In this document: piece after piece, positions 6,294-7,794 of the stretch
Layout of the letters: each line of letters begins with the position of its first letter
Position numbering within the stretch: position 1 is the stretch's first letter
NCBI RefSeq assembly: GCF_048403405.1
Contig: NZ_CP183129.1
DNA length: 64,000 nt
DNA from: Escherichia coli
GTDB taxonomy: Bacteria; Pseudomonadota; Gammaproteobacteria; Enterobacterales; Enterobacteriaceae
Reading direction: 5' to 3' (one strand)
The notes under the pieces: model-generated
The model's input: the letters and a program-made list of their open reading frames with translations, nothing else
What the model was told of the DNA's origin: nothing
Databases searched by the model: none
Translations under genes and position numbers: made by a program

Positions 6294-6575
6294 TCAATAA
6301 ATCCCATCATTGCGATCAACCTCATCCTTAACCATTGATGCGAGCAGTTCTTCCAGTTTCTGCGCTGACAGCTTTACCTGGTGATCTTCAGCATCTTCCC
6401 GGGCTATTGTGGTTCGCGCAGTGGCTGATTTTGCTGACATCACCACAGGGGGCAGACGGACCATTGAACCATGGCCTCCGGAACAAATAAGGGCAAAAAT
6501 AACAACCACTATCGAAAGCTCACAAACTAACCGCAGCACGTTCCTGCATACGACGTATCTGCGGCATAATCCCAA
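6294..6575 (-). CDS. Hypothetical protein at prophage left end (start uncertain)
   Basis: ORF track only; no recognisable motifs. Confidence 0.25.
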   Translation of the reverse strand: MGLCRRYVVCRNVLRLVCELSIVVVIFALICSGGHGSMVRLPPVVMSAKSATARTTIAREDAEDHQVKLSAQKLEELLASMVKDEVDRNDGIY

Positions 6576-6744
6576 TGATTACTCCCTGACAGGATTTGCA
6601 GGCCACTCAATATCAGGTGCAGTTGATGTATCAACACGATTCAACAATACCCGATATTTATTCCATGCCTCCAGCAACGATCTTTCTTCCTCCGTTGCGA
6701 TTTCCAGATCTACAGCATCCTGCAGTGGCGCAATATACTCACTG
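6529..6744. repeat. ~216 bp direct repeat copy 1 (tfa 3' coding end + downstream hairpin)
   Basis: Aligns with 7579-7794 at high identity; flanks the methyltransferase gene. Confidence 0.8.
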
Positions 6745-6848
6745 AATTCCTGGATGTAGAACTGTGTGGTGACGGTCTTCCAGCCATTCGGCTCCTGCTG
6801 TATCGAAGCATACCAGGCTATTTCAATATCGCTATGCTGCGGCAGCAT
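6579..6848 (-). CDS. Tail fiber assembly protein-like (second Tfa paralog, conserved C-terminal domain)
   Basis: C-terminal 46 aa ...[50 protein letters not shown] nearly identical to the C-terminus of Tfa at 7628..8212; N-terminus differs. Confidence 0.6.
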
Positions 6849-6904
6849 TTAACCCCTTGTAATTCATCGCCATAATTGATTTAATTCACAAATAAAACTA
6901 TAAC

Positions 6905-7573
6905 ATGGTGAAATCAATGAAAAAAAACACAGATGATGGGGCTAAAATTTACACACCACTTACCCTAAAGCTTTATGACTGGTGGGTTTTGGGAGTATCA
7001 AATCGGCTTGCATGGGGATGTCCTACAAAGGAACACCTTCTTCCACACTTTCTGGAACATGTAGGTAACAACCATCTGGATATTGGTGTTGGAACTGGGT
7101 TTTACCTTACTCACGTACCTGAGAGTAGTCTGATATCTTTAATGGATTTGAACGAAGCTAGCCTGAACGCGGCATCTACAAGGGCTGGGGAATCAAAAAT
7201 TAAACATAAAATTAGCCATGATGTTTTTGAACCTTATCCCGCGGCGTTACATGGTCAATTTGATTCCATTTCCATGTTTTACCTTCTTCACTGCCTGCCT
7301 GGAAATATATCTACAAAAAGCTGTGTAATACGCAATGCGGCGCAGGCCTTAACTGACGATGGAACTCTATACGGAGCCACAATTCTTGGCGATGGAGTTG
7401 TGCACAATAGCTTCGGTCAAAAACTGATGCGCATTTACAATCAGAAAGGCATCTTTTCAAACACAAAAGATTCCGAAGAAGGCTTAACACATATACTCTC
7501 AGAGCATTTCGAGAATGTTAAAACCAAGGTTCAAGGTACTGTAGTAATGTTTTCCGCTTCAGGGAAAAAATAG
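6905..7573 (+). CDS. Class I SAM-dependent methyltransferase (orphan, AT-rich moron)
   Basis: 222 aa ORF with Rossmann motif I HLDIGVGTGFYL and acidic motif II (LMDLNE); low GC relative to neighbours; opposite strand to the tail genes. Confidence 0.6.
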   Translation: MVKSMKKNTDDGAKIYTPLTLKLYDWWVLGVSNRLAWGCPTKEHLLPHFLEHVGNNHLDIGVGTGFYLTHVPESSLISLMDLNEASLNAASTRAGESKIKHKISHDVFEPYPAALHGQFDSISMFYLLHCLPGNISTKSCVIRNAAQALTDDGTLYGATILGDGVVHNSFGQKLMRIYNQKGIFSNTKDSEEGLTHILSEHFENVKTKVQGTVVMFSASGKK

Positions 7574-7578
7574 CATCC

Positions 7579-7794
7579 AACCGCAGCACGTTCTTGCTTA
7601 AGACGTGCTGCGGCATAATCCCAATGATTACTCCCTGACAGGGTTCGTAGGCCACTCAATATCAGGTGCAGTTGATGTATCAACACGGTTCAGCAACACC
7701 CGATACTTTTTCCAGGCTTCCAGCAATGAGGTTTCTTCCTCCGTTGCAATTTCCAGATCTGCAGCATCCTGAAGCGGCGCAATATGCTCACTGG
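7579..7794. repeat. ~216 bp direct repeat copy 2 (tfa 3' coding end + downstream hairpin)
   Basis: Aligns with 6529-6744; contains hairpin ccgcagcacgt...acgtgctgcgg just after the methyltransferase stop. Confidence 0.8.

Follow-up and report, generated by a model that had tools for sequence, protein, structure and literature searches.

Here, we report on a methyltransferase gene at the tail-fiber end of a lambdoid prophage in a stretch of 64,000 nucleotides from Escherichia coli (contig NZ_CP183129.1 of assembly GCF_048403405.1; the whole stretch is referred to as the window). A preceding sequence-only reading had described this gene as an orphan S-adenosylmethionine (SAM)-dependent methyltransferase gene, carried as cargo between duplicated 3' ends of the tail fiber assembly gene tfa. 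We found that the gene is neither novel nor unnamed; rather, it is ybcY, and the tfa piece to its left is tfaX, both of the cassette catalogued in the cryptic prophage DLP12 of E. coli K-12. The region is very probably the ybcY-tfaX cargo cassette of DLP12-type lambdoid phages, located within an ~52-kb lambdoid prophage integrated in ompW. Moreover, the junctions of the cassette suggest that it would have entered this prophage by two homologous exchanges, both within the conserved sequence coding for the C-terminal part of Tfa.

In K-12, the gene order of the DLP12 cassette is tfaD, ybcY (pseudogene), tfaX, appY, and ompT, and 1465 bp of the window (6602-8066) have 96.9% DNA identity to the K-12 ybcY stretch. 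The two loci share the order and orientation of tfa, ybcY (b0562 in K-12) on the opposite strand, and a truncated tfaX (b0563), and their spacers have the same promoter hexamers. They differ in that the window has an intact ybcY where K-12 has a pseudogene, and in that K-12 tfaX is 61 amino acids (aa) long and followed by appY-ompT, while tfaX of the window is 89 aa long, has gained the last codons of the resident tfa together with a hairpin, and precedes a DUF4376 fragment and the ompW attachment site. Consistently, the annotation of phage PhiR26_1 names the gene YbcY. Free lambdoid phages with the cassette include PhiR26_1, 2G7b, ev243, and Turner, among others; PhiR26_1, 2G7b, and Turner have the same tfa-ybcY-tfaX order as the window, and in the phages inspected, the cassette is followed by an alpha/beta hydrolase gene, ompT, and int. 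ybcY together with the spacer is present at at least 95% identity in 3797 of 5426 complete E. coli genomes (~70%), with up to four copies per genome, and the arrangement of the window at the ompW site was found in 364 genomes.

ybcY is an intact open reading frame (ORF) for a class I SAM-dependent methyltransferase, and motif I (HLDIGVGTG), on which the sequence-only reading had relied, begins at residue 57 of the 222-aa product. The profile phrog_2132 (E 4e-157) covers residues 5-222 of this form. Because this profile and nearly all homologs begin at the ATG at 6917, and because GGTGA is located 5 nt upstream of it, we suggest that this ATG is probably the true start, giving a protein of 218 aa. 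The low GC content ascribed to the gene was also confirmed: it is 41.1% in ybcY and 26.8% in the 56-bp spacer compared with 50.9% in the prophage. A 45-aa "hypothetical protein" (WP_001309429.1; 7518-7655, minus strand), called by the NCBI Prokaryotic Genome Annotation Pipeline (PGAP), overlaps the 3' end of ybcY and the adjacent hairpin and is probably a spurious call.

ybcY is bordered by two direct repeats of ~227 bp, made up of the blocks 6529-6556/7579-7606 and 6559-6755/7608-7804, each 89% identical, with a 1-nt indel between them. Using BLAST, 216 nt of copy 1 align with copy 2 at 89.4% identity with one gap; with an E value of 1.5e-77, this similarity is far beyond chance. Each copy contains roughly the last 55-58 codons of a tfa frame, a stop codon, and a hairpin. 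Therefore, the previously described pair of ~216-bp repeats with a tfa 3' end and a hairpin is real, but its coding part is longer than the ~46 codons given at the time. Similarly, both copies hold the 3' end of a tfa gene, but the left one belongs to a complete ORF of 89 aa that starts with an ATG of its own and is, thus, not a bare fragment. The hairpin at 7581-7613, between the convergent tfa and ybcY genes, is strong, with predicted energies of -23 kcal/mol on one strand and -28.5 kcal/mol on the other (z ~-5), while that at 6531-6564 is weaker (-13 and -20 kcal/mol) owing to a mismatch and an additional base.

Only residues 26/31-88 of TfaX match other Tfa proteins, i.e., those of lambda, P2, P1, Mu-like, and other phages, and correspond to the conserved Tfa C-terminal domain. 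The N-terminal fiber-binding domain (~100-140 aa) is absent from TfaX, and the ~25 residues preceding the C-terminal domain are cassette-specific and unrelated to other Tfa proteins. PGAP calls tfaX an incomplete pseudogene, and the gene varies between cassettes; besides the short K-12 form, phage 2G7b has a tfaX lacking 7 bp, and that of PhiR26_1 ends differently at the 3' side. tfaX looks like a decaying remnant, or stub, the lasting effect of which is to supply homology. A contig of Citrobacter freundii has the first 37 tfaX codons (76% aa identity; 4831-4941 of the examined locus) upstream of a 90%-identical ybcY, and no called tail genes were found within the 7.9 kb examined. This conservation beside ybcY argues that the cassette-specific N-terminal part of tfaX travels with ybcY.

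To search for prophages lacking the insert, we used a 452-nt query representing a synthetic junction without the 1049-bp unit, i.e., a query too short to bridge the insert. Single-piece matches (99-100% coverage, 91-96% identity) were obtained in 20 genomes, in which stf, tfa, the hairpin, and DUF4376 follow each other without ybcY (empty allele). In strain NMBU-W13E19, the empty allele is located at the same trpA-yciGFE-ompW site as the prophage of the window and includes stf, tfa, the hairpin, and the DUF4376 fragment; in the window as well as in the empty allele, this fragment is directly downstream of a tfa hairpin. In addition, ash-family and Rha-family genes, which are missing from the window, lie between the DUF4376 fragment and ompW in the empty allele (2939-3768 of the examined locus).

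By comparing the window with the empty allele and with DLP12-type phages, we delimited the two junctions. On the left side, copy 1 was aligned with the corresponding sequences of NMBU-W13E19, PhiR26_1, 2G7b, and K-12. The window equals the empty allele at 6470-6648 with one mismatch and equals PhiR26_1 and 2G7b from 6627 rightwards; further left, 2G7b diverges from copy 1 at ~6624, as does PhiR26_1. On the right side, a three-way comparison of diagnostic sites showed that the window keeps the donor type up to site 7715, across ybcY, the hairpin, and the terminal part of tfa, and is empty-allele-like from 7748 through tfa into stf, where PhiR26_1 diverges strongly from the window. Both exchange intervals (Table 1) fall within the conserved sequence coding for the Tfa C terminus. 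Thereby, a DLP12/PhiR26_1-type patch of ~1.09 kb (roughly 6640-7730), which extends from the proximal part of tfaX through the AT-rich spacer and ybcY to the hairpin and distal end of a donor tfa, is embedded in sequence of the type found in sister prophages, where stf, tfa, the hairpin, and DUF4376 occur without ybcY. The tfaX genes of the donor phages end differently at the 3' side and lack a copy of the hairpin, arguing that the long hairpin-containing repeat is a product of the exchange. The proposal that the gene was inserted by recombination between tfa paralogs is, thus, borne out by a mosaic of empty recipient and DLP12-type donor with both exchange points in the repeated Tfa C-terminal sequence. 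We suggest that the single tfa 3' end of the recipient would have paired in one exchange with the donor tfa and in the other with the tfaX fragment of the donor; the conserved C-terminal coding sequence would serve as a portable homology arm, and the exchange itself would create the long hairpin-bearing repeat.

Table 1. Features of the cassette and its surroundings, with positions in the window
Feature	Position	Strand	Description
ybcY	6905..7573	+	Intact class I SAM-dependent methyltransferase gene; ORF, 222 aa; PGAP product WP_000240999.1
Divergent tfaX/ybcY spacer	6849..6904	.	AT-rich, 56 bp; promoter-like sites
tfaX-like ORF	6579..6848	-	89 aa, own ATG; phrog_2341 (88 aa) matched end to end
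Direct repeat copy 1	6529..6755		tfaX 3' coding part, stop codon, weakened hairpin 6531-6564
Direct repeat copy 2	7579..7804		tfa 3' coding part, stop codon, strong hairpin 7581-7613
Left exchange interval	6627..6648	.	22 bp; left of it as in the empty allele, right of it as in DLP12-type phages
Right exchange interval	7716..7747	.	32 bp; donor-like sites up to 7715, empty-allele-like from 7748
tfa	7628..8212	-	Full-length tail fiber assembly gene, 194 aa; phrog_105, E 4e-100; PGAP
stf	8212..11238	-	Side tail fiber gene, 1008 aa; ORF; PGAP "prophage tail fiber N-terminal domain-containing protein"; upstream of tfa, late operon
DUF4376 fragment	6213..6482	-	PGAP pseudogene; phrog_1141/7703 match; internal stop
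ompW 3' remnant	5865..5990	-	PGAP partial OmpW, 126 bp; prophage end at the tail-fiber side, attachment site within ompW

YbcY is predicted to be a cytoplasmic class I SAM-dependent methyltransferase of 218/222 aa and of the small-molecule type. In Pfam, it matches only the generic small-molecule families Methyltransf_12, 23, 25, 11, and 31, plus a weak match to MTS. The AlphaFold2 (AF2) model (predicted local distance difference test score [pLDDT] 94.7; predicted template modeling score [pTM] 0.91) has a seven-stranded alpha/beta fold, and the leading Foldseek matches in the PDB are PmtA, JHAMT, PfPMT, CysG, SgvM, and NodS, all of which are small-molecule or lipid methyltransferases, with identities of at most 21% and no clear winner. 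Searches by sequence were less specific. The curated NCBIfam models gave only sub-threshold matches (CpaM, RquA, and PmtA at 16-18 bits versus cutoffs of 175-390), PHROGs lists the family as "unknown function", and the single sequence had only weak Rossmann-core matches in the PDB (E 1e-3 or worse). With an 80-sequence profile, the best PDB match (5e-7) was a SAM-dependent methyltransferase labeled CysG, again a weak Rossmann-core match. The family is large, with 196 representative clusters at E <1e-30, and its members come from Enterobacterales, Pseudomonas, Legionella, Vibrio, actinobacteria, acidobacteria, and many fungi. An alignment of 80 members shows Tyr20, Asp77, His125, Gly153, and Asp185 to be invariant and Tyr12, Trp33, Cys35, His53, the GxGxG motif, Cys126, and Asn182 to be nearly invariant. 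G57, G59, and G61 (98-99% conserved) and the invariant D77 represent the GxGxG of motif I and the acidic residue ending strand 2. Asp77 may bind the SAM ribose, and His125 is likely the general base.

The nearest labeled relatives of YbcY in AFDB50 are fungal, namely VerB (36% identity; query-normalized TM score 0.90; E 4e-25), a vrtF-like protein, and a putative O-methyltransferase from a lichen. DovB, the counterpart of VerB in another P. polonicum strain, was shown to O-methylate an alpha-pyrone hydroxyl, and AurB, CtvB, and AstB are given as homologs with the same O-methylation activity (PMC12312803). VerB and DovB belong to the same small (~220-250 aa) class I family as YbcY, and the similarity of VerB to the YbcY model extends over the full length in sequence and structure; however, the fungal enzymes sit in polyketide synthase gene clusters, while YbcY and its bacterial relatives have no conserved neighbors, and no polyketide synthase or other biosynthetic genes were found next to ybcY in the window or in seven bacterial homolog contexts. 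Based on this comparison, we speculate that YbcY would O-methylate an acidic hydroxyl (or methylate an amine) of a small metabolite or xenobiotic with His125 as the base. Such an O-methyltransferase activity is our best guess and the weakest step of our account; we know of no pyrone-type substrate in E. coli. Methylation of this kind would benefit the lysogen rather than the virion. Among distant relatives, one fusion to a P450 and other N-terminal extensions, which were not identifiable, were found, none of which is informative for E. coli, and a homolog search seeded with an Aspergillus member returned only unnamed proteins. In the literature, we found no functional study of ybcY, which is mentioned in a promoter table from genomic SELEX (gSELEX), in descriptions of the ompT context, and with a null phenotype of the K-12 pseudogene; a link to a quinolone-toxin methylase was not found in the literature either.

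Homologs of YbcY are conserved at full length with 56-90% identity across Enterobacterales and occur in diverse settings. Among homologs with 56-68% identity, those of Enterobacter and Yersinia are lone chromosomal genes. The homolog in Testudinibacter sp. (Pasteurellaceae; 57% identity) ends an integrase/AlpA element (6001-7589 of the examined locus). It is also immediately beside an OmpW-family gene, which may coincide by chance with the ompW attachment site in E. coli. In Providencia alcalifaciens (CP023536.1), a 56%-identical homolog in a lambdoid prophage is located between the genes for the Q antiterminator and a holin (3471-5669 of the examined locus), beside a gene for an NleF-like caspase inhibitor; the Q-holin interval is the position of stx in Shiga toxin (Stx) phages. 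In Salmonella, a homolog of the same identity range is at the integrase end of a prophage. No neighbor is conserved across the Enterobacter, Yersinia, Testudinibacter, Edaphobacter-like metagenome, Providencia, Citrobacter, and Salmonella contexts. These varied settings without a conserved neighbor argue that ybcY is a self-contained accessory gene that has repeatedly been picked up by prophages.

Lambdoid phages are known to carry such cargo in the b region, e.g., lom, bor, and ompT, and the concept of these "morons" stems from Hendrix and colleagues. Similar to these genes, ybcY is a putative autonomous transcription unit with an atypical base composition and predicted promoters between the tail-fiber genes and the attachment site, and it is present in some and absent from others of otherwise near-identical prophages. 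Unlike an unexplained illegitimate insertion, however, its entry can probably be traced to a pair of homologous exchanges within a coding segment that is present twice. Altogether, the opposite orientation, the low GC content, the AT-rich spacer with sigma-70-like sites, and the absence from related prophages substantiate the notion of a moron. The spacer contains a predicted sigma-70-like site, TTAACC-16-CATAAT, at 6849-6876 and a second one, TTGATT-17-TATAAC, read from the sequence at 6876-6904. For K-12 ybcY, TTGATT-17-TATAAC is listed as a constitutive RpoD promoter based on gSELEX in vitro, and H-NS binds in the same spacer (PMC3946193). We suggest that one or more sigma-70 promoters of its own would drive transcription of ybcY in the direction opposite to the late operon and that H-NS would probably damp this transcription; the hairpin at 7581-7613 lies between ybcY and the convergent tfa.

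Several points count against the account of a cassette that was inserted by homologous exchange and is kept as a working gene. A single one of the 20 empty alleles, i.e., that of NMBU-W13E19, was inspected in its context; the diagnostic site at 7766 breaks the donor/recipient pattern; and the direction, insertion and not deletion, rests on parsimony and on present-day proxies for donor and recipient. Besides ybcY being a pseudogene in K-12, truncated variants are common (161-aa clusters with 445 members, as well as 130-aa and 194-aa forms), the binding of H-NS in K-12 suggests silencing under laboratory conditions, and transcriptome or phenotype data for an intact ybcY copy were not found in the literature. 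With respect to direction, the arrangement of the window could be ancestral at ompW, with the 20 empty alleles having lost ybcY by recombination between the direct repeats. The repeats, being 227 bp long and 89% identical, are a plausible substrate for deletion, the empty allele has copy-2-like proximal and copy-1-like distal sequence, and window-type alleles outnumber empty alleles by 364 to 20 genomes. However, relative to the two copies in the window, the diagnostic sites of the empty allele have a 1-2-1-2 pattern, which is impossible by a single crossover; because a single-crossover deletion gives a hybrid with one switch, insertion by two homologous exchanges is favored. Furthermore, the window is itself a mosaic of donor and recipient, the breakpoints of which coincide with the ends of DLP12-type homology, and making it already requires a pre-existing tfa-hairpin-DUF4376 recipient. 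We, therefore, regard an origin of the empty alleles by deletion as quite unlikely. With respect to function, the cassette could be inert baggage, with ybcY silenced or decaying and without a phenotype. The pseudogene in K-12, the many truncated variants, the binding of H-NS to the spacer, and the clearly decaying tfaX are in line with this idea. So is the observation that a K-12 ybcY mutant was like the wild type in an Hha toxicity assay (PMC2408971), although this result is uninformative because K-12 ybcY is a pseudogene. Truncation in homologs, which the sequence-only reading had named as speaking against its interpretation, is in part what we found; nevertheless, among the clusters, that of the intact 222-aa form is the largest by a wide margin (6589 sequences), and the ratio of nonsynonymous to synonymous substitution rates (dN/dS) is 0.21 in the comparison with Citrobacter (more distant pairs are saturated at synonymous sites), indicating that ybcY is under purifying selection. 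The full-length conservation across Enterobacterales and the independent recruitment to different prophage positions also speak against inert baggage, which we consider unlikely.

The choice of substrate presents further alternatives. YbcY could be a lipid or head-group N-methyltransferase such as bacterial PmtA or the Plasmodium enzyme PMT, methylating phosphatidylethanolamine or phosphoethanolamine and, thereby, altering the envelope of the lysogen. PfPMT (3uj6) and PmtA (8ys9) are the best neighbors with a solved structure, and in an hhalign alignment with a probability of only 77%, in which the C-terminal substrate-binding part and lid were unaligned, Tyr12, Tyr20, and His125 of YbcY fall on Tyr19, Tyr27, and His132 of PfPMT. 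However, the identity to both enzymes is 15-20%, the substrate-lid region does not align, and YbcY scores 15.7 bits on the PmtA model NF045882 versus a cutoff of 390. We consider this activity decidedly improbable. YbcY could also have a macromolecular target and methylate DNA, RNA, or protein, e.g., in anti-restriction or in the modification of a tail fiber or chaperone. The sequence-only reading had argued against a DNA methylase, and this still holds: there is no DPPY/NPPY motif ([DNS]PP[YFW]) and no PC motif, as in N6-A, N4-C, or C5-C DNA methyltransferases, in the 222-aa product, no DNA methyltransferase family in Pfam, and no target-recognition domain in the 218 aa, which form a single domain fully covered by the Rossmann core and an N-terminal helix pair in the AF2 model; also, the fold neighbors are small-molecule or lipid enzymes. 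Homology to a standard phage DNA methyltransferase was not seen in the Pfam or motif search, and PADLOC gave no significant match to a defense system. Finally, because the homologs stand alone in non-phage contexts and in fungi, a phage-specific macromolecular target is disfavored, and we consider an activity on a macromolecule highly unlikely.

As a tentative model, YbcY might be an active, phage-spread lysogenic-conversion enzyme in most E. coli that O- or N-methylates a gut metabolite, a microbial toxin, or an envelope head group and, thereby, alters host fitness, while the tfaX stub might persist because it lets the cargo hop between tail-fiber modules by homologous recombination; we consider this model possible but far from established. 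The cassette has long been annotated and is identical to that in hundreds of sequenced genomes, and its behavior fits standard lambdoid mosaicism. Neither the spread of ybcY nor the recombination linker will surprise a phage genomicist. Still, the locus is a clean, base-resolved example of a conserved segment coding for a chaperone domain that acts as a recombination linker in moving cargo between lambdoid prophages. Because few prophage cargo genes are as widespread in E. coli as ybcY, enzyme screens could reasonably be aimed at it, even if the practical value is modest.

Other observations concern the repeats and tail-fiber region. The Rfam model RF02111 ("IS009") matches the same tfa C-terminal segment as that forming the repeats, with 225 bits at 7671-7869 (minus strand; gathering score 117) and 112.5 bits at 6622-6825 (minus strand). 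However, both matches lie inside the protein-coding tfa and tfaX frames and on the coding strand, and what this family captures seems to be a piece of tfa coding sequence and not a free-standing RNA; in one study, IS009 was left out as an element within genes (PMC5331693). A sub-threshold Rfam match to the Shigella small RNA CssrB was found at the tfa terminator hairpin (7582-7644, minus strand; 32.6 bits versus a gathering score of 76; E 3e-4). In phage Turner (PP925837.1), ~1 kb of small annotated ORFs and a gene for a DNA invertase lie between tfa and the cassette (4482-6274 of the examined locus), which suggests a former or active invertible tail-fiber segment beside the cassette. For the cassette region of the window, we rejected such a segment; the repeats are direct and not inverted, and there is no invertase in this region.

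The chromosomal backbone of the window comprises trpD-trpC-trpB-trpA, yciG, yciF, and yciE of E. coli. At the tail-fiber end of the prophage, J, lom (11390-11989), stf, and tfa follow each other on the minus strand, before ybcY on the plus strand, the 89-aa tfa-like ORF, and the DUF4376 pseudogene. At the other end, full-length ompW (216 aa) is regenerated at 58173-58826. The adjacent 376-aa ORF (56997-58127) had no match in NCBIfam and is taken to be the integrase gene by position. Within the Ala/Ser-rich repetitive part of stf, there are alternative-frame ORFs of 372 aa (9834-10952, minus strand) and 245 aa (10004-10741, plus strand), which look like artifacts of biased composition (GC content up to 62% and a strong AT skew). 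Outside the prophage, yciG contains a 45-nt internal direct repeat (4541-4585 and 4607-4651; 78% identical) that encodes the GGQxSGGN-type motif of the general stress protein.

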